Shown piece after piece: positions 26,000-40,006 of a DNA stretch of 49,914 bases (positions within the stretch are counted from its first letter, which is position 1; each line of letters begins with the position of its first letter). The DNA lies in the IMG/VR virus record IMGVR_UViG_2802429222_000003; one strand, given 5' to 3'. Below the pieces are notes generated by a model that saw only the letters and a list, made by a program, of their open reading frames with translations, made no database searches and was not told the origin of the DNA. A program made the position numbers and the translations under genes. The stretch comes from a virus (taxonomy: Duplodnaviria; Heunggongvirae; Uroviricota; Caudoviricetes).

Positions 26000-26260
26000 T
26001 GTTCATTCCACGGACAAAAACAGAGAAAGGAAACGACAGAGGCCCAAAAGTTCGTTTTCAGCACCTGTCGTTTCCTTTCTTTTCAGGGGGTATTTTAAAT
26101 AAAAACATTAAGTTACGACGAAGAAGAACGGAAACGCCTTAAACCGGAAAATTTTCATAAATAGCGAAAACCCGCGAGGTCGCCGCCCCGTAACCTGTCG
26201 GATCGCCGGAAAGGACCCGCAAAATGATAATAATTATCATCTACATGTCACAACGTGCAT
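26000..26260 (-). other. cos packaging site: cosN 12-nt cohesive-end sequence at 26177..26188 with cosB to the left and cosQ side to the right
   Basis: plus strand AGGTCGCCGCCC is the reverse complement of lambda GGGCGGCGACCT; flanks match recalled lambda left- and right-end sequences. Confidence 0.9.
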
Positions 26261-29601: not shown

Positions 29602-29816
29602 TATTCACCTCTCGCAGCCTTGCGCTTATCTTCTTTAATCTTGAAATAAAGGTTTGTCAGGTACGTCAGCAGGCCAAATACCAGGCTACCCAGCACACCT
29701 ATTGCTGCCCACTGTGAGGGCGTGACTTTATCGAGCAGCTGTAAAAACCAGTAGCCAGCACTGCCTGCGGAGGTGCCGTAGGCAATGCCCGTTGTTAACT
29801 TATCCATGGATTTCAT
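29601..29816 (-). CDS. S: pinholin (phage 21 S-type class II holin, 71 aa, dual start MKSM)
   Basis: matches recalled S21 (...[17 protein letters not shown]...[11 protein letters not shown]...[13 protein letters not shown]). Confidence 0.9.
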
Positions 29817-30004
29817 AGCCTCACCTCCGCAAATAACGGATGGTGTACACGGTTCGGAACGAAGAGGAAAGGTATAGAAGTTACATTAGCGTAAGGCTTG
29901 AACATCTATTCAAAAAGAAAAACGCCAGCGATTATTCTGGCGTAGCTGAAAGCATCATACAATTATCAAATACGAAAATTACAAAATCATTAAAACGCAT
30001 CACG

Positions 30005-30745
30005 TTACATCATGTCTTTTTCTAAAAAAAATCTTGATGAATATTGATGGGGAGGAACACCAAAATATCTTCTGAAAACACTTACAAAATATGACGTGTT
30101 TTCATAACCGCATATCTCAGCAACTTTTCCAACAGAATATAAATTGTAGCTTAATAACCTTTCCGCCATCACCATTCGCTCTTCAAGAATTAATTTACTA
30201 AATGATAAGCCTTCGTGCTTTAATTTTCTTTTTAACAGACTTTCACTCAGATACAGTCTTGAAGATATATCACAAAGTCTCCATGTTGCAGATATATCCG
30301 TGTGAATAATAGCCTTAACTTTACTTCCTAAACTATTAAGACATCCAAATAAAAAACTTTGCACTATTTTCTCTGAAGATAAGATAGCAAGACATGCAAG
30401 TGATATTTGATTTCTAACAAAATCCACAGTTCTGCCATCACAATTCAAGCATGCAATCAAGTTCTTTAACAATGAAAAATCTTCACATTCCACCATCAAG
30501 TATGCCGGATAAAACCTTCTTACAGAAAAAGGTGAGAGTGTGTTGCTTTTAAAGAAATCATTAACTGTTTTCTCTTCAACATCTACGATCATTACATGAT
30601 CTATATTTGATGAAAAAAAATCTTTTAAATTGTAATCAATGAGAACAGCACTTCCTTTTTTAAACAAAATATCTTCTTTACCAATTCGGACATCAAACGA
30701 GTTCAACACCAAAATGATAGAACATATGTATGGCATATTATCCAC
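30005..30745 (-). CDS. AraC-family regulator, AppY/EnvY-like paralog (246 aa)
   Basis: about 40-45% identity by eye to AppY at 3118..3867 across both the N-terminal and HTH regions. Confidence 0.8.
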   Translation of the reverse strand: MDNMPYICSIILVLNSFDVRIGKEDILFKKGSAVLIDYNLKDFFSSNIDHVMIVDVEEKTVNDFFKSNTLSPFSVRRFYPAYLMVECEDFSLLKNLIACLNCDGRTVDFVRNQISLACLAILSSEKIVQSFLFGCLNSLGSKVKAIIHTDISATWRLCDISSRLYLSESLLKRKLKHEGLSFSKLILEERMVMAERLLSYNLYSVGKVAEICGYENTSYFVSVFRRYFGVPPHQYSSRFFLEKDMM

Positions 30746-31087
30746 CTGATATCATTGGGGTTACACCAGGTAAGTATAGGTGGAAAATCAATATTCGCCA
30801 GTTCAACAATAAGGAAAATCTCATTGCATCACAAGTATAAAATTATGTATTTAACTCACAAAGACAAATTATTAAACCAATCTGTTATATTATATATAGC
30901 TGCGTGGAATCATAATATCATATATTTTGACTGGCATGTTTACCAAATTTAAGTTGCATCTCAATGGTTTCTTCAGCGTAAACAGAGTTTTTATACAAAC
31001 TGACACTCTGGGTATCATAGTGTAGTTTTTACGATTGTAAATATCCTGTATGCAGGAACTCATCCTTTTGGATGATATCGCATACAA

Positions 31088-32047
31088 TTAATTTACCATC
31101 AGTCTTAGAGCCAGTTCGTCCGGATAGGGATCGAAGTAATTCTGTGTAAGCAAGTAATCATTAGGATACTCACCCAGATAATGCTTCAGCAGAGTCAACG
31201 GCGCAAGAAGAGGTAATGTGCCAGAACGATAGTTAAGTATAACCTCGCTCAACTCTTTACGCTGGCGTGTACTTAAGTAGTTACTAAAATACCCCTGTAT
31301 ATGCATCAGCACATTCGTGTGATTTTTACGTGATGCAGGTTTTCTGAGAATCGCCATCAGCTTATCACGATACACCTCAAAGTATGATTCAAGATCCGCC
31401 CACTCGTGTATTGCAGCCACAAATGGTCCCATATCTTTATAGCCTGTCTGACTATGCGCCAACAACTGAAGCTTATAACGACTATGAAAAGCCAATAACT
31501 CTCTTCTTGATAATTTCTCCTTGTAAAGGTGATTGAGCTCATGCAAAGCAAAAACTCTTTCAACAAAATTCTCACGAAGCACTGGATCATGTAATCGCCC
31601 ATCCTCTTCAACCGGTAGCCAGGAAAACTTTTCCATCAAAGTGCTCGTAAATAGTCCCACTCCATCTTTACGACCTCGATTACCATTTTCATCATAGACA
31701 CGCACGCGCTCCATGCCACAGCTGGGAGATTTAGCACAAACCACAAACCCCGATACATCCTTTAATTTGTCCATATAAGAACGACTAAACTCTGTCATTC
31801 TCTCTGTCACATCCTCATTCTGGTCGTGGCTGAAACACATCCGTATATTTCCTTGCGTCGAGCGCACAAGACGTAGAGCAGGACGCGGAACTGGCAGCCC
31901 TATAGCCATTTCCGGACATACTGGTCTGAATGTTACCCATTCCACTAATTTGTCCATTAAAAAGTCAGCTCTTTTGTGACCACCATCAAAACGAACAGCA
32001 GAACCGGCCAAACAACCGCTGATTCCAATCACAGGTTTTTTTATCAT
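31088..32047 (-). CDS. DUF523 (TudS-like) / DUF1722 (YbgA-like) fusion protein (319 aa)
   Basis: motifs GISGCLAG..VRFDGGHK, VCPEMAIGLPVPR, KSPSCG consistent with the Cys-containing DUF523 core; C-terminal half resembles YbgA-type domain. Confidence 0.6.
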   Translation of the reverse strand: MIKKPVIGISGCLAGSAVRFDGGHKRADFLMDKLVEWVTFRPVCPEMAIGLPVPRPALRLVRSTQGNIRMCFSHDQNEDVTERMTEFSRSYMDKLKDVSGFVVCAKSPSCGMERVRVYDENGNRGRKDGVGLFTSTLMEKFSWLPVEEDGRLHDPVLRENFVERVFALHELNHLYKEKLSRRELLAFHSRYKLQLLAHSQTGYKDMGPFVAAIHEWADLESYFEVYRDKLMAILRKPASRKNHTNVLMHIQGYFSNYLSTRQRKELSEVILNYRSGTLPLLAPLTLLKHYLGEYPNDYLLTQNYFDPYPDELALRLMVN

Positions 32048-32239
32048 ATCCTCCCCCTTGACTAATTCATTAACACATAAACTGTGTAGTGCACGGAATA
32101 AATTGCCTTTCTGGCGTCATCACTGACAATTTTTCTGTTATGGACTATTCCTAATATAGTATGAAAGTTCTTTAAGTGATCGGTCGTAATCATCTATCTT
32201 TCATACTTACTCTCAACTATCAAAAGTACAGGATTTATT

Positions 32240-32764
32240 ATGAAGTTATGGCCTGTGTTGACTGGCATTGCGCTCTCTTTCACTCTTATAGCATGTAAGG
32301 CCCCGACACCACCTAAAGGTGTGCAGCCGATTACAAATTTTGACGCCAACCGCTACCTCGGAAAATGGTATGAAATAGCTCGCCTCGAGAACCGGTTCGA
32401 ACGTGGTCTGGAACAGGTCAGCGCTACTTATGGAAAACGGAACGACGGAGGGATTCGTGTACTTAACCGTGGATACGATCCAACGAAAAATAAATGGAGC
32501 GAGAGCGAAGGTAAAGCATACTTTACTGGAGATACTAAAACTGCAGCGTTGAAGGTTTCGTTTTTTGGCCCCTTCTATGGTGGCTATAATGTAATCAAAC
32601 TGGATGATGAGTATAAGTATGCTCTTGTCAGTGGTCCGAACAGAGAATACCTATGGATTCTGGCAAGGACCTCAACTATTCCAGATAAAGTAAAAGCAGA
32701 CTATGTGCGAACCGCTCAAAAGTTGGGATTCAATGTCAATGAATTATTATGGGTTAAACAATAA
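32240..32764 (+). CDS. bacterial lipocalin (Blc-like) lipoprotein (174 aa)
   Basis: signal peptide with lipobox LIAC; roughly 60% identity by eye to recalled E. coli Blc (NFDANRYLGKWYEIARLENRFERGLE...KVSFFGPFYGGYNVI...YLWILARTSTI). Confidence 0.85.
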   Translation: MKLWPVLTGIALSFTLIACKAPTPPKGVQPITNFDANRYLGKWYEIARLENRFERGLEQVSATYGKRNDGGIRVLNRGYDPTKNKWSESEGKAYFTGDTKTAALKVSFFGPFYGGYNVIKLDDEYKYALVSGPNREYLWILARTSTIPDKVKADYVRTAQKLGFNVNELLWVKQ

Positions 32765-32792
32765 AATCCCTACCCGAAATGATACTTATTAG

Positions 32793-32819
32793 AAAAAAAC
32801 CAGCCTTTGGGGAGGCTGG
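32793..32819 (-). terminator. intrinsic terminator downstream of Q (candidate tR' of the late operon)
   Basis: minus-strand hairpin CCAGCCTCCCCAAAGGCTGG followed by TTTTTTT. Confidence 0.7.
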
Positions 32820-33882: not shown

Positions 33883-34169
33883 GCCTTAATAACCCCCTCT
33901 TTCAGCCAGATAACCTGTGTTCTCGCCATACCTTCCAGCGCGCATTCTTTTGCATATGCAGCATCGACAAAATGTGTGCGGCGGTCGATTTCGTCGTGGC
34001 AGGCAGAACATGCAATGGTGGCAATCAGGTCTGGCGGTTTGATACCGGTACCGCACAATCCAGCCAGCCGGATATGTGCCAGTACAGACGTTTCAGAATT
34101 GCCATTACATACGCCAGGGATTCTTACCTGGCATTCCCGACCACGCGCTGCTTTTCTCAAATCAGCCAT
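33879..34169 (-). CDS. DUF1364 Cys-rich nin-region protein (YbcO-like, 96 aa from the internal Met)
   Basis: CxxxxxxC...CSACH pattern; ATGA-type overlap with rusA; DLP12-like gene order. Confidence 0.6.
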
Positions 34170-34331
34170 GATTCCTCCTTGCTGCCAGTCGCAACCATTT
34201 TTTATCAACCAGGCTAGCGGTATATCCGAGCAGTGTTGGTATTTCGGATGGCTTCAGCTCAGGCTTACGCTTACGACGATTTGATACTCTGTAGATGTGT
34301 CCGTTCATGACACGAATAAGCGGTGTAGCCA

Positions 34332-34787
34332 TTACGCCTCCTGCTTGTCGCGGAGCTGCTGGAACTCGCAGCTCTGCGGAATAGTCAGGTGGCAGCCAAT
34401 ATTCACCGCCCAGGCTTCAACCTTACACAGGAAGACATACATCTCTCCGGTATCAAGATCGGAGGTATGGCGTAACGACTGGATAGTGGTGATATCACCG
34501 GTTACGACATCAACCAGGTCTTTGGTTTCATAACCGAGATATGTGTGTTTGAGAGCATCTTTTACCCAAGCTGGAGTGGCGAACGTTTTACCCCTGCTGA
34601 TGAGGTGTTCACTGATTTCGCTGTACCACATGTGGCTGAGTGCATTCTGGGAAAGACTGCGTTTCTCACGCCACGGTTTAAGCACCATGCGAAAGCATTT
34701 GCCCTCCTCCAGATAAGGCTGGATCTGCCGACCGATAGCGGTGAAGTTGCCGCGATGTAATTTGATGCCGTCTTGTGAGAGGTTCAC
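34332..34787 (-). CDS. nin-region protein, YbcN-like (151 aa)
   Basis: length and position match DLP12 ybcN; no motif recognised. Confidence 0.55.
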
Positions 34788-35001
34788 GCTTCACCTCCGC
34801 AGAGGTCAAACGCTAGATGCAAAGAATTGCAGGTGCATTTCTGCATCTGTGAAGGGAGAAGAGAGTTTGGATTGTATGTGCGCATAAACGTCCCCGTTTA
34901 GCGCAGAAGTCACCGGAGTTGTTCAGGCTCCGGTGACATAATTATGCCGTGTTGATTTCCCAAAATCAAAATCGATAGAATTGCTCCTTCTTAAAACACT
35001 T

Positions 35002-35799
35002 TTACTCTCTGGAAGCTTTTCTTATCTCTCTTGGTGTTATATTAAAACGATTATGAAATCTTTCAGTAAAACGAGAAGGACACTTATAACCATTTTCTCT
35101 GGCAATCTCGCTTATAGGTTTTACCGTCGTTTGTATAGCAGACAACGCATTATTTAACCTCACATCGTCCAGTATACTTTGGAAACTTACCCCCTCGCTT
35201 GCTAGACGGCGATGTAATGTAGAAACAGAAATGTAGAGATATCGAGCAACCTTGTTTGCTGTCCATTTTGTGCCGGGTTCGGATAGCAGCAGGTTATAAC
35301 AACGACTTATCAATGATTGTTTACTATATGATAAAAGTAAATGATTAACATGATTCACTCCTAACGAAAGTAGAACGCCCATTGCTAAGTGCTCCTGAAT
35401 TTTAGTTGAGAAGCCTCGGGAAACAGATGTTTTTAGTTGCTCCCAACAATATATTAACTCAGGATTCTGAGGTAAAAAGAAACTTGTTTTGTTACGTATT
35501 TGATCAGTTACCGTATAAAGTTTTTGGAAACTCTCAATTAAATCAATGGGTAAGTAAAGCATTTCTGCAAGATAAAGCCCTGCTTCAGGATAATTCTCAA
35601 TATAAAATTCATAACCACAAGGAAATAATATTATTTGATTATTATCAACAGTTAAAGTATGCGTCTCCCAATTGATAACTTTCTTTCCCTGACGGATACG
35701 ACACAAAGCTGGCATAAGAGGCTTAACCCTATGAATCTCATGATGTTTATGCATCCGTATTTCTTCGATCTTTAAGTTAGTCTTACCTCTTGCCAGCAT
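35002..35799 (-). CDS. AraC-family regulator, YbcM-like (265 aa)
   Basis: C-terminal AraC HTH; AT-rich cargo block. Confidence 0.8.
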
Positions 35800-35808
35800 A
35801 CTCTCACC

Positions 35809-36360
35809 CTACTTTATCTCATAAACTGGTGTTATCTCAGCGGTTGCGATTTTATTAGCATTAAGCATATAACCAACTAACGCTCCGCTGGAGTTAGAAT
35901 CTACAGGAATCTTTTCAGTTTTTAGAGCCCATACTTTAAACTGGTAATGATGTGGTTTATCTCCTTTAGGAGGACATGCGCCACCAAACCCAGCATAGCC
36001 AAAATCATTTCGGCCTTGAACAGCACCAGTCGGCAGTTTTGTTCCATCACGTCTCCCTGCATCAACGGGCAAATATGTTATTGTTGCTGGAATATTAACA
36101 ACAGTCCAATGCCACCAACCACTGCCTGTAGGTGCATCTGGATCATATACAGTTACGGCAAAGCTTTTGGTACCTTCAGGAACACCAGACCAGGTTAATG
36201 AGGGCGATGTATTACCACCTTCACACCCAAATCCAGAAAAGACATGAGACGTTGTAAGTTGCTCTCCTGTTTTTATTTCATTACTAGTGACCTGAAATGC
36301 TGCAGCCTGCGCAGAAAATGTTATGAATGCCAATACAGTTGAAACGATAAGTGTTTTCAT
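35809..36360 (-). CDS. PEBP-family periplasmic protein, YbcL-like (183 aa)
   Basis: signal peptide; PEBP signatures DPDAP and HHY. Confidence 0.85.
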   Translation of the reverse strand: MKTLIVSTVLAFITFSAQAAAFQVTSNEIKTGEQLTTSHVFSGFGCEGGNTSPSLTWSGVPEGTKSFAVTVYDPDAPTGSGWWHWTVVNIPATITYLPVDAGRRDGTKLPTGAVQGRNDFGYAGFGGACPPKGDKPHHYQFKVWALKTEKIPVDSNSSGALVGYMLNANKIATAEITPVYEIK

Positions 36361-36577
36361 AAAAACCTCTTTGTTATGACCTATCGTTATTTTATTTGAT
36401 ATTCCTTTATCTCATTATGCATAAAGGCGCAATGTTTATGCAAAAGCAATCACAATTGTACCCCCAACCCAATTATTTGCCACAATATACACAAAGCACA
36501 TTGATACTATCTAAAAACTCTGCTTTATTATTAGTAATACCTACGAAAGTCGGTGTTATTTTTTAACCTACCATTCA

Positions 36578-36625
36578 AAATACGTGACATACACCATTTT
36601 GCTCATAATAATTTGTCACGTATTT
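36578..36625. repeat. perfect 12-bp inverted repeat AAATACGTGACA / TGTCACGTATTT with 24-bp spacer
   Basis: read directly at 36578..36589 and 36614..36625, between the recombinase and PEBP genes. Confidence 0.85.
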
Positions 36626-36824
36626 TCAGTATTTGAATCTGCGACCAAGAGTTCTCACCTAACAAATGATTAAGATTGTATAGCTCATTTACTACCCCAA
36701 TACAGCCGTACAAAACTCGCTTGTGGGAGCAAACAAAGTAATTACCCATTAAGTTTCGTCAAAGATAATTAATTCTGTCTTGCACTTTATCACCATAGCA
36801 TAACTTAAAATCCGAGATCATTAT

Positions 36825-38351
36825 TTAGAAATAAATCTCACCATCAACCATATATTTGAGAGCACTTATCGCCTGCTGGGCGGATATTACTTTCATTAAA
36901 GGATAGTGTTTAAAAACAATGCCATTCATAAAATAGATATCACAGGTTTTATTATCCGTATTAATTATGATTTTTTCGAATGTTTTATAGGCAAGTGTAC
37001 GGCATAACTCTCGTCCATTTTTACTGGTTAAGTCAATAGCATAAAAATCACTGAATGAATTTACACCTTTACTCTTCAAAGTTTTCAATGATACCGAAGC
37101 CCTTCGTAATTCCTTATCTAATAGTCTTATTTTCTCTGCTATAGCGGTAACTTCAGGCGCGACAGACAATGCAACGATTAAATTATTAATTTTCATCTGA
37201 AGCTCAATAATTTTTAACTCTAAAGTTTCATTAGCATCTTTCTTGTTTTCAACTGGTTGAATTTTGCTACAATTAAAAAGCAATTCATTAATGATATTAT
37301 AATCAACCAAATCTCTTTTTATTGATGGCCTGTCACATCGATGTAATCTTCTCATCGGACAAACATAATAGCCATGCAAACTTCCAGATACCGCATGAAC
37401 AATCATGGTATTACCACAAGCCTCACACTTCATAACTGTTCGAAGTAGATTTATTAGCATAGGATTCTTGCTACTATTGCTAATACCAAAAGGTGCCAAC
37501 CGAATTTCCTGTACAGCGTAAAACAAATCATCTGATATGACTCTGGGATAATAGCCAGCGATTTCACTTATCCCTTTCCCTCTTGCACGATATGAAGGTA
37601 CGCATATACCTATCAGAGCTTTATTCGCTAATAATTTTTCAATTACAGAAGGTCCCCATGCACTTTCTTTTCCTGAGAAATTCTTTACAGCATGATCATT
37701 TAAATACTTGGCTATTGCATTCAATGAGCGCCTTTCCATCCTGAGTTTAAAAATTAGCTCAATAGTTTTCACCCTGTCGGGGTCTGGAACAAAAGCCGTT
37801 CTTTTGTCATCTAAGGAGAGCCATCTCGGACAAGACGCCGTCATAATCGTACCTGATTCCAGTGCATCCTGCCGTTTTTTCTTCCATGATAATTTAACCC
37901 GACTTGACTTTATCTCGCTTTCTTCATTTGCCCTTTGTGCTATAAGTATGGCTTTTATTAATGAATATGGCTCATTCAAAGAGTCAATATTATAGACTGT
38001 ATTGTCGCAAAGAGTTATAACATCAATACCGTGATTCAAAATCAATTTCAGACGTTCAATCGCTTCACCGACTTTTTCTCTTGAAAGTCTGTCCAGACTT
38101 TCAACTAACAATGTAGTTCCTGGCAATATATAACCATGCTCTATAGCATCTAAAAATTCCGAAAAAGCTCCTGATTGTGCATGCTTTCCTTTGAATGCAC
38201 TTAATCCTAAATCTTCATATGTTATGGTATCAAGATAATAATCACTATTTACCTTTAACCATTCAGCAATAAGTCTTCTCTGTCGGTTTAATGAGTCACC
38301 AGACATCTGACCTGGTGATGAAAATCGCATATATGCTATGGCTTTTTTCAT
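36825..38351 (-). CDS. large serine recombinase, YbcK-like (508 aa)
   Basis: N-terminal resolvase-type domain (YMRFSSPGQ), C-terminal Cys cluster CEACGN...YYVCPMRRLHRC. Confidence 0.8.
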   Translation of the reverse strand: MKKAIAYMRFSSPGQMSGDSLNRQRRLIAEWLKVNSDYYLDTITYEDLGLSAFKGKHAQSGAFSEFLDAIEHGYILPGTTLLVESLDRLSREKVGEAIERLKLILNHGIDVITLCDNTVYNIDSLNEPYSLIKAILIAQRANEESEIKSSRVKLSWKKKRQDALESGTIMTASCPRWLSLDDKRTAFVPDPDRVKTIELIFKLRMERRSLNAIAKYLNDHAVKNFSGKESAWGPSVIEKLLANKALIGICVPSYRARGKGISEIAGYYPRVISDDLFYAVQEIRLAPFGISNSSKNPMLINLLRTVMKCEACGNTMIVHAVSGSLHGYYVCPMRRLHRCDRPSIKRDLVDYNIINELLFNCSKIQPVENKKDANETLELKIIELQMKINNLIVALSVAPEVTAIAEKIRLLDKELRRASVSLKTLKSKGVNSFSDFYAIDLTSKNGRELCRTLAYKTFEKIIINTDNKTCDIYFMNGIVFKHYPLMKVISAQQAISALKYMVDGEIYF

Positions 38352-38605
38352 GGTGACACCTGCTAACGTATGCTTTTATAAACCTTAGTGGTGGGATATA
38401 ATTTTTGTTTAATTTTTATTTAAAAAGACAATTAAGGTCACATTATCTTGAATATACAACAATAATCGTATTGCAATTTTCTTACGCCATAATCTTGAAA
38501 GCACAAAAGAATACATAAAAAATAAAGACATTAACAAAAAGCATAAAACGAGGCTCATATAAATATAAGAGCCTCCATATTTTAGTCGTTTAGAAACAAA
38601 TTATT

Positions 38606-38938
38606 TTAATGTGGTGTGCTTCGTGACAATAAATTAATAACCAACACACCGGCACAAATCAACATCATGCCTATAATGGCTGGCAGGTCCAGCCGTTGGC
38701 CGAAAAGTCCCCATGACAGTAAGCTAATCAGGACAATACCGACTCCTGACCAGATAGCATAAGCAATCCCTGTAGGAATATAAGCCAGCGTCTGAGCTAA
38801 TAACCAGAATGATGCACAATAACAAATAATTGTACCAACAGATGGCCATAACCGTGTAAAACCTTCTGAAAACTTCATTAAGGTTGTACCAATGACCTCT
38901 GCAAGTATTGCACCACCAAGATAAATATAAGGGTTCAT
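38606..38938 (-). CDS. emrE: small multidrug resistance efflux transporter EmrE (110 aa)
   Basis: from the internal Met the product MNPYIYLGGAILAEVIGTTLMKFSEGF... matches recalled EmrE; track ORF has an 18-codon extension. Confidence 0.9.
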   Translation of the reverse strand: MNPYIYLGGAILAEVIGTTLMKFSEGFTRLWPSVGTIICYCASFWLLAQTLAYIPTGIAYAIWSGVGIVLISLLSWGLFGQRLDLPAIIGMMLICAGVLVINLLSRSTPH

Positions 38939-39005
38939 AGCATATTCTTTCCTGTTCAAACTGGAGAGAATTGTACTACAGTTTGAACTCAACTCACCTG
39001 TTTCA

Positions 39006-39308
39006 TCATTGTGTACCCATTGATGTTCTTTTATATACCCTCAATACCCGTTTCATCGCGGCACTCTGGCGACACTCCTTAAAAATCAGATTCGTGCTCA
39101 CCTTTCCTTCCCGTTCTTCTCTGGTAGCGAACCGGTAATACACCGTTCGCCAGACCTTACCATCAACGACCAGGATTCCTGCCCGCGCCATTTTAGCCGC
39201 AGCCTGATTTATGCTGGTTACGGTTGCGCCTGTTACCGCGGCAACGTCCTGTGCACAGAAGCTCTTATGCGTCCCCAGGTAATGAATAATTGCCTCTTTG
39301 CCCGTCAT
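39006..39308 (-). CDS. ren: Ren exclusion protein
   Basis: MTGKEAIIHYLGTH... similar to recalled lambda Ren. Confidence 0.85.
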   Translation of the reverse strand: MTGKEAIIHYLGTHKSFCAQDVAAVTGATVTSINQAAAKMARAGILVVDGKVWRTVYYRFATREEREGKVSTNLIFKECRQSAAMKRVLRVYKRTSMGTQ

Positions 39309-40006
39309 ACACTTGCTCCTTTCAGCCCAAACTTAGCTTTGATTTCTGCGATCTTCGCCAGAGCCTGTGCACGATTTAGAGGTCTACCGCCCATGACAGG
39401 AAGTTGTTTTACTGGTTCAGGTATCGCCTCATCACGGTTAATTCGCGCTGTCATACAGGCCAGTTCATCGGCAGCCTTGCGCCGTAATTCCGCATCAGTC
39501 AGCGCATTGGCCCGCATGTTCTGATACAGGTTGGTAACCAGCCAGTAGTGCGCGTTTGATTTCCACGGATAAGACTCTGCATCCGGATACAGGCCACGTT
39601 TCCGGCAATACTCGTAAACCATATCAACCAGCTCGCTGGCGTTTGGCAGCCCGGCGGTAACGGATGCTTCTTCCCGGCACCAGGCAACAAACTGCCCGGG
39701 TGATGGCAGGAATGGTCGATTCTGCCGACGGGCTACGCGCATTCCTGCGTTAACCTGTTCCATCGTGGTGATCCCGTTTTCCCGGAAAGCCAGAACCCAC
39801 TGGCGGCGGATTTCGTTCAGTTCGTTCTGGTCCCGGTTAGCCAGGCTCGCCGGGAAAGTTGCCAGTAACTGGCTGAACACACCGTTGATGATCTGCGCTA
39901 CCTGTTGTACCTGCGGCTTTTCGTCGTACTGTTCCGGCATGTTGTTGGCGATCCGGCGCATCTGCTCACGGTCAAAGTTAACCATCTGTGCGGCGATGTT
40001 TTTCAT
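39305..40006 (-). CDS. P: replication protein P (233 aa)
   Basis: near-identical to recalled lambda P. Confidence 0.93.
   Translation of the reverse strand: MKNIAAQMVNFDREQMRRIANNMPEQYDEKPQVQQVAQIINGVFSQLLATFPASLANRDQNELNEIRRQWVLAFRENGITTMEQVNAGMRVARRQNRPFLPSPGQFVAWCREEASVTAGLPNASELVDMVYEYCRKRGLYPDAESYPWKSNAHYWLVTNLYQNMRANALTDAELRRKAADELACMTARINRDEAIPEPVKQLPVMGGRPLNRAQALAKIAEIKAKFGLKGASV

Follow-up and report, generated by a model that had tools for sequence, protein, structure and literature searches.

The window analysed here is the whole of a 49,914-nucleotide (nt) viral sequence (IMG/VR record IMGVR_UViG_2802429222_000003, Caudoviricetes), and our subject is the AT-rich block of genes that lies in it between ren and the nin region and encodes, among other proteins, the multidrug efflux transporter EmrE and the serine recombinase YbcK. 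The block is the already known emrE–ybcK–ybcL–ybcM cargo of DLP12-like lambdoid prophages. It is a mosaic of three units (emrE, ylcJ–ybcK and ybcL–ybcM), each of them read here as having its own promoter. Recombination between phages at boundaries they have in common, together with a small number of illegitimate joints, would have assembled them, and we hold this explanation, taken as a whole, to be moderately probable. The central unit encodes an intact large serine recombinase that is under purifying selection, as judged from sequence comparison, and that is not the integrase of this prophage. A perfect inverted repeat between ybcK and ybcL may be a weak, possibly bidirectional intrinsic terminator or insulator hairpin, an assignment that we make only tentatively. 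The finding re-describes a well-known K-12 prophage block, and its value is modest; it presents the block as independent cargo units stacked in a slot that lambdoid phages share and that elsewhere holds a defence gene.

Cargo units in a shared lambdoid slot

A first-pass annotation of the window, made from the letters alone, had placed genes for EmrE, a recombinase, a PEBP-family protein and an AraC regulator between ren and the nin genes, and gene annotation together with Pfam searches confirms all four (Table 1). It had also described the block as compositionally distinct, which the GC content bears out (0.363 across 34971–39041, against 0.497 and 0.512 in the flanks). Its right-hand end at 38992 is that of a longer, TTG-started open reading frame (ORF), whereas emrE itself spans 38606–38938. 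The cargo genes are all co-oriented with O, P, ren and Q. The small gene ylcJ is always linked to ybcK in E. coli, and its product found no match in PHROG and PADLOC searches; none of the five block proteins matches a defence system in PADLOC, and an Rfam search of 34000–39500 returned no RNA family.

The region is 100% identical to a lambdoid prophage located at icd in E. coli GmM066, which has its own excisionase and tyrosine integrase adjoining icd. The full arrangement occurs in 671–675 of 5,426 complete E. coli genomes, K-12 and B strains included, as well as in three deposited phage genomes (PhiR34_1, PhiR68_2 and PhiR70_1). That the same gene set exists in DLP12, as had been stated, thus holds for the arrangement as a whole, down to the patch of sequence that bears the inverted repeat (99.6% identity in K-12 strains). 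With other neighbours, emrE–ylcJ–ybcK is found in the deposited phages Turner, Perceval, 4A7, Lambda_4C10, 1W, 3W and D2. Viable phages carry the block or variants of it, accompanied by a tyrosine integrase in Turner and in the window.

The comparison that defines the borders of the block drew on seven other versions of the ren–ybcN interval. The left breakpoint, at 34970, is identical in all seven (loci L003–L006, L087, L088 and L089), and on the right, homology with phages devoid of emrE and ybcK is regained at about 39042, within the 3′ end of ren. Between these borders (34971–39041), other lambdoid phages hold unrelated cargo with the left boundary unchanged; at least six alternative contents were found for the same slot, among them PD-lambda-1 with a full-length rha, and two hypothetical genes. 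The conserved left boundary includes a GC-rich hairpin that folds as RNA with −25.9 kcal/mol (z −3.3), is kept in variants A–D and is not followed by a U-tract, and it ends with a short TTGATTT..AAATCAA motif (Table 1). The interior is just as modular: emrE–ylcJ–ybcK (36784–39041) has four different downstream partners, namely ybcLM in the window, an alpha/beta hydrolase gene, a truncated rha with a hypothetical gene, and a stretch of only about 280 bp. All ybcK-bearing variants share a diverged stretch 3′ of the gene (36784–36824), beyond which weak similarity reaches to about 36745.

In phage PhiR26_1, the 155-bp left boundary occurs a second time (L089, 3552–3706, corresponding to window positions 34817–34970; 80% identity), within the slot and with a cargo unit on either side; the slot of this phage also holds the defence gene PD-lambda-1. 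Such a copy would fit a reusable linker through which cassettes are exchanged by homologous recombination.

These comparisons contradict the suggestion that the block is a single integrated element. Its borders, at 34970 and about 39042, coincide with those of the slot that other phages share, and its parts also occur separately; ybcK is internal and stands at neither end of the block, and a tyrosine integrase belonging to the prophage is encoded at icd. The block thus lacks the marks of an element mobilised by a serine recombinase, namely a recombinase gene at one end, discrete attL and attR sites, and a recent empty site elsewhere. Its features are rather those expected of a block of morons, with a GC content of 0.36 against 0.50, variable content, promoters and putative terminator-like hairpins.

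Part of the cargo also has a chromosomal form. An emrE–ybcL–ybcM cluster without ybcK adjoins fliE in 2,627 E. coli genomes, at 88–94% identity, and in most E. coli emrE is located outside any intact prophage. In EC958 (L001, 6001–8154) and about 2,600 other genomes, this cluster together with ylcH forms a lambdoid nin fragment fixed next to fliE, at about 90% identity. The emrE and ybcLM units are carried by phages that are viable and inducible, and they also exist as a copy fixed in the chromosome.

Relative to the chromosomal form, the window contains an extra 2,083 bp (36516–38598), which begin 7–12 bp past the emrE stop codon. At the ends of this segment we read only a 6-bp AATAAT direct repeat, and a search by eye for terminal inverted repeats, at its ends and at those of the 268-bp patch that carries the inverted repeat, found none that was convincing. 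So clean a difference between presence and absence would be expected if the ylcJ–ybcK segment were a small mobile element, inserted into the emrE–ybcL spacer by its own recombinase, and in a broader form of this account the YbcK family may move cassettes into resident lambdoid genomes; YbcK-family genes also repeatedly adjoin truncated phage genes (rha, P and DUF1367). We nonetheless consider this history quite improbable. The two forms are only about 90% identical, and with a divergence of some 10% the difference cannot be assigned to insertion or to deletion. An AATAAT repeat without terminal inverted repeats suggests microhomology-mediated joining, not serine recombination, and the upstream module boundaries among homologues are staggered and not discrete. 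Moreover, ybcK never occurred without emrE and ren in 30 records, an even sample of 4,530 matching ones, and a contiguous emrE–ybcL junction exists only at up to about 94% identity, which argues against recent excision: a synthetic junction query for a recent, precise loss of ybcK found no match above 94.4% identity, the value of the best contiguous match, in strain HH45. The fliE locus of HH45 (L143, 3569–5723) combines prophage-type alleles of ybcL, ybcM and emrE with a chromosomal-type spacer, beside a prophage-like porin gene. This combination suggests that gene conversion may have taken place between prophage and chromosomal copies.

The YbcK recombinase and its relatives

YbcK is encoded by an uncharacterised K-12 gene, and it stands out as a conserved recombinase under selection whose relatives look like prophage integrases. 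Roughly 1,500 E. coli genomes have the gene. Its Pfam matches comprise Resolvase (E-value 5.5e-19), Recombinase (2.3e-14) and Zn_ribbon_recom (7.9e-08), and it matches PHROG 95, annotated 'integrase', at 4e-120. Across 17 homologues, R9, S11, D87, R88 and R91 are invariant, as are the four zinc-ribbon cysteines C309, C312, C331 and C339. The protein had been described at first as a 508-residue serine recombinase with a C-terminal cysteine cluster; the recombinase and the four cysteines stand, and the cluster is placed in the middle of the protein, not strictly at its C terminus. An AlphaFold model (mean pLDDT 79) has long helices at residues 346–427, and Foldseek aligns it with probability 1.0 to full-length serine integrase–DNA complexes (9dxd, 9dxh) and to phiC31, Bxb1 and 4kis, with the low TM-scores (0.3–0.4) expected for flexible multi-domain proteins. 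YbcK is thus predicted to have the complete architecture of a large serine recombinase, comprising the catalytic domain, the Recombinase and zinc-ribbon domains, and the overall fold including a coiled-coil arm. The ratio of nonsynonymous to synonymous polymorphism (pN/pS) for ybcK is about 0.08 in all pairwise comparisons, including that between two lineages lacking the inverted repeat. No cognate attachment (att) site was identified by comparing variants or homologues.

The positions of its homologues suggest two settings for this family. In Yersinia enterocolitica, Ewingella and Erwinia rhapontici, homologues with 50–56% identity are found at the extreme ends of prophages, where an integrase gene would stand, with tail-fibre genes and either chromosomal genes or a further prophage as neighbours; in Citrobacter pasteurii the end position is an apparent one, since purB and the recombinase gene are separated by an SRAP gene whose origin is uncertain. 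The family therefore probably supplies the integrase of other enterobacterial prophages. Homologues with 42–60% identity in Atlantibacter and Pantoea dispersa occupy the nin region, between the replication genes and Q, as ybcK does here.

Truncated phage genes were seen beside recombinase genes in three instances. In E. coli variant C (L004, 3527–3850), a truncated rha lies 110 bp past ybcK. In Pantoea alvi (L024, 5256–5693 and 8152–8859), a fragment of P adjoins the recombinase gene and stands beside a full P gene. In a metagenomic contig (L146, 5623–5851 and 8609–8831), the first 60 codons of DUF1367 lie by the recombinase gene and a diverged full copy follows 3 kb downstream; the two are 82.5% identical in nucleotide sequence and 97% in protein sequence.

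These truncated neighbours could be scars of recombinase-mediated insertion, or ordinary illegitimate joints that were noticed because we looked beside a recombinase gene; the staggered module boundaries upstream of close homologues favour the latter. A broader version of the insertion account would have the YbcK family active inside lambdoid genomes, as a second route of integration or of cassette capture, with the inverted repeat of the window as an intact attP-type site and the truncated rha, P and DUF1367 as the scars that it left. We regard this combination as very improbable.

The inverted repeat between ybcK and ybcL

The repeat was first reported as a perfect 12-bp one with a 24-bp spacer at 36578–36625. 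It is indeed perfect and the spacer is correct, but each arm is 13 bp long: AAAATACGTGACA at 36577–36589 and TGTCACGTATTTT at 36614–36626 are complementary at 13 of 13 positions. On the coding strand, it is located about 200 nt past the ybcK stop codon and about 95 nt ahead of the −35 element of the ybcLM promoter; in K-12 it corresponds to about position 569,900, by a coordinate conversion of our own. Of 300 dinucleotide shuffles of the 4-kb block, only 2 contained a perfect repeat of at least 13 bp with a spacer of 3–60 bp, and this is one of only two perfect repeats of at least 11 bp in the 50-kb window. Several such repeats would be expected per whole genome, by a scaling of our own and not by a computed test.

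The repeat resides in a 268-bp junction patch that is unique to this arrangement. The patch is missing from the chromosomal emrE–ybcLM form and from all other ybcK-bearing variants, and occurs once in each of 675 E. coli genomes, at 98.9% identity or more, and in three phages, always with the full arrangement. It is present as well in a PLSDB record that has the label of a plasmid and a length of 4.9 Mb, and searches of phage and plasmid collections for distant relatives found none. The few substitutions among the copies all fall outside the repeat arms; since every copy is at least 98.9% identical, this intactness is uninformative about selection. We also scanned IMG/VR for the same arms at spacers of 6–34 nt: the 44-nt matches share the spacing of the known dyad, and one that was inspected (L097) is the same sequence, whereas five other matches are simple hairpins with no relation to it; by a rough estimate, chance alone would give about as many.

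As RNA of the sense (minus) strand, the repeat folds with −18.7 kcal/mol (z −4.4) into a 13-bp stem and a 6-bp inner helix, with AAAA before it and UAUUUU at its end. Here it would close the ybcK unit about 95 bp ahead of the ybcLM promoter. The hexamers that our consensus scan assigned to that promoter are those of the constitutive, H-NS-bound ybcLM promoter described by Shimada et al. (PMC3946193), who also reported a separate ybcK promoter, likewise bound by H-NS. Rho-dependent termination has been reported upstream of ybcK in K-12, and one E. coli 3′-end data set contains a Rho-dependent end inside ybcK. Because the moron model expects units with their own promoter and terminator, a terminator or insulator is the most economical reading of the repeat. 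A second terminator-like hairpin, GAGGCUC..GAGCCUC followed by GUUUUAUGCUUUUU, lies after emrE (−14.6 kcal/mol, z −3.7) and is more canonical, with its U-run, than the ybcK–ybcL repeat; it is missing from the consensus terminator scan because its loop exceeds the 8-nt limit of the scan. The annotated start codon of ylcJ (38556–38558) falls within one arm of this hairpin. Two homologues (L149 and L150) have a canonical terminator hairpin directly 3′ of the recombinase gene.

Several observations weigh against this interpretation. The loop of 24 nt is far larger than that of typical intrinsic terminators, the stem has only four G–C pairs, and the U-tract has only four U. The consensus scan did not call the repeat, and no 3′ end maps to it in the one searchable E. 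coli 3′-end data set, in which ybcK is poorly expressed. A perfect 13-bp match with symmetry confined to the outer arms would also be expected of a protein-binding site. Beyond the hairpin itself, our overall account explains neither the origin of the 268-bp patch nor the selective reason for keeping ybcK.

The repeat may instead have no function, having arisen by chance or as a relic of the sequence from which the patch was derived. Relatives of the patch are lacking outside this arrangement, it contains no conserved ORF, the near-identity of its copies makes their intactness silent on selection, and the scaling given above allows several such repeats per genome. Set against this are the rarity of 13-bp repeats among the block shuffles (2 of 300) and the placement of the hairpin, which has an A-tract and a U-tract beside it, in the very gap that separates two transcription units. 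On balance, we find a functionless repeat unlikely, if the most plausible of the alternatives considered here.

A further reading makes the 50-bp dyad a recombination site of YbcK, attP-like and next to the recombinase gene, which would be either active, as a second route of phage integration, or a relic. Its dimensions (13 + 24 + 13 bp, with outer-arm symmetry) fit the general attP layout of large serine recombinases, as in the sites of phiC31, Bxb1 and A118. No more than about 250 bp separate the dyad from the 3′ end of ybcK, itself intact, and the dyad is unlikely to have arisen by chance within the block (2 of 300 shuffles); YbcK has all its catalytic residues and is under selection, and members of its family hold the integrase position in other prophages. 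If YbcK did act on the dyad, temperate phages carrying a drug-efflux gene would have a second, unrecognised recombination route.

The distribution of the patch nevertheless renders such a site improbable, and with it the earlier proposal that the repeat is a target of the recombinase. Variants B, C and D lack the patch, as does phage Turner, and their YbcK proteins are 97.6–99.8% identical to that of the window: the gene differs by 8 nucleotides in variant D and by 5 in Turner, amounting to one to a few amino acids, and the variant B phages have 97.6% protein identity. As pN/pS is about 0.08 also between repeat-less lineages, selection on ybcK does not need the repeat in cis. The 48-kb genome of Turner has no copy of an arm beyond chance expectation. 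The window has no second dyad and its half-site matches are not significantly enriched (4 against 1.44 expected; 7 of 100 shuffles reached 4), so that no partner site came to light. The 17 homologues (37–61% identity) show no equivalent dyad and no conserved flanking non-coding sequence. Within the dyad, the inner 24 bp are asymmetric (3 of 12 positions match), and the central dinucleotide (36601–36602) is the palindrome GC, which would remove the polarity of a site, although this test is weak and the register may be off by one base. Finally, the patch is whole and unbroken in 675 of 675 genomes. The repeat thus resembles an att site as an imperfect dyad of about 40–50 bp, through its outer arms only, and departs from one in that it neither co-occurs with the recombinase nor has a partner site.

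The first-pass annotation had also raised an invertible segment, and a recombinase gene adjoining an inverted repeat upstream of a promoter does recall a phase-variable switch run by YbcK. We give this reading practically no weight. Judged by the geometry of known serine invertase and integrase sites, arms 24 bp apart are too close for two recombination sites around an invertible segment, and the repeat does not enclose the ybcLM promoter. None of the 675 genomes showed the patch inverted or its match split, and neither inversion nor recent excision was found in assemblies, the block being in one co-linear place in 671 genomes (at least 80% of the query); as far as assemblies show, inversion is ruled out.

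We also considered a role for the repeat as an operator of YbcM, and rejected it: the chromosomal ybcLM locus keeps the promoter but lacks the repeat.

Two further sequence features were noted around the repeat and elsewhere in the window. A 48-residue ORF on the minus strand (36603–36749) has its stop codon in the repeat loop; among 5.8 billion proteins it matches only another copy of itself, at 98% identity, it belongs to no family, and it is probably not a gene. The other long repeat of the window (26024–26080; 16-bp arms AGAAAGGAAACGACAG and CTGTCGTTTCCTTTCT, 25-bp spacer) is located near a truncated portal gene and is presumably similar to the hairpin that phage lambda has close to its cos/Nu1 end.

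The window also contains a second AT-rich stretch, at about 29800–32800 (GC 0.30–0.35 at about 29800–31200), between the Q antiterminator and the lysis genes. Its genes, encoding a protein with a helix-turn-helix (HTH) domain, a YbgA-family protein and a lipocalin, look like further cargo.

Table 1 Features of the ren–ybcN interval, in window coordinates
Feature	Position	Strand	Basis	Remarks
ybcN	34332–34787	minus		NinB-family; first nin-region gene here
ylcH, tiny gene	34784–34885	minus		
GC-rich hairpin, TCACCGGAG...CTCCGGTGA	34909–34937	minus	RNA fold	immediately 5′ of ylcH; belongs to the conserved left slot boundary
TTGATTT..AAATCAA motif	34952–34970	none		ends at the common left breakpoint
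ybcM, AraC-family regulator	35002–35799	minus	Pfam HTH_18/HTH_AraC; RefSeq annotation of a 100% identical record	
ybcL, PEBP/Raf-kinase-inhibitor-like protein	35809–36360	minus	Pfam PBP 7e-42; annotation	
ybcLM sigma-70 promoter, GTGGCA-17-TACAAT	36455–36483	minus	consensus scan	
268-bp junction patch	36516–36783	none		bears the inverted repeat; unique to this arrangement
Perfect inverted repeat, 13-bp arms, 24-bp spacer	36577–36626	none	13/13 complementary	
Short stretch 3′ of ybcK	36784–36824	none		common to all ybcK-bearing variants, diverged (~70%)
ybcK, intact large serine recombinase, 508 residues	36825–38351	minus	Pfam Resolvase + Recombinase + Zn_ribbon_recom	
ylcJ, small hydrophobic protein, 49 residues	38409–38558	minus	RefSeq annotation, translation	
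Terminator-like hairpin after emrE	38530–38575	minus	RNA fold	
emrE, SMR multidrug efflux transporter	38606–38938	minus	Pfam Multi_Drug_Res; annotation	
ren	39006–39308	minus	annotation	

Comparison with known systems

The closest known counterpart is DLP12 of K-12 (renD–emrE–ylcJ–ybcK–ybcL–ybcM–ylcH–ybcN), in which the genes, their order and their strand are the same and the patch is 99.6% identical. Here, by contrast, the block belongs to another lambdoid prophage, which is integrated at icd and encodes a tyrosine integrase.

YbcK shares with the phiC31, Bxb1 and Listeria A118/LI integrases the catalytic, recombinase and zinc-ribbon domains and a long helical region, and its predicted model matches their structures. 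Among the traits of serine integrases, no cognate site pair, directionality factor or integration junction was identified for YbcK. The dyad is similar to the attP of large serine integrases in overall length, and differs from it in its palindromic centre and in not accompanying the gene from phage to phage, in a prophage that uses a tyrosine integrase.

Compared with intrinsic terminators, which are often bidirectional, the repeat is alike as a stable hairpin between co-directional units, with AAAA before it and UUUU after it. Unlike such terminators, it has a 24-nt loop partly closed by a second small helix, an AT-rich stem and a short U-tract.

The block as a whole also resembles lambdoid morons, which likewise are AT-rich, lie between conserved genes, vary in content and have their own promoters and terminator-like hairpins; the likeness extends to the slot itself, which holds the known defence gene PD-lambda-1 in another phage. 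In contrast to typical morons, the slot here holds a stack of three units, including one that encodes a recombinase.

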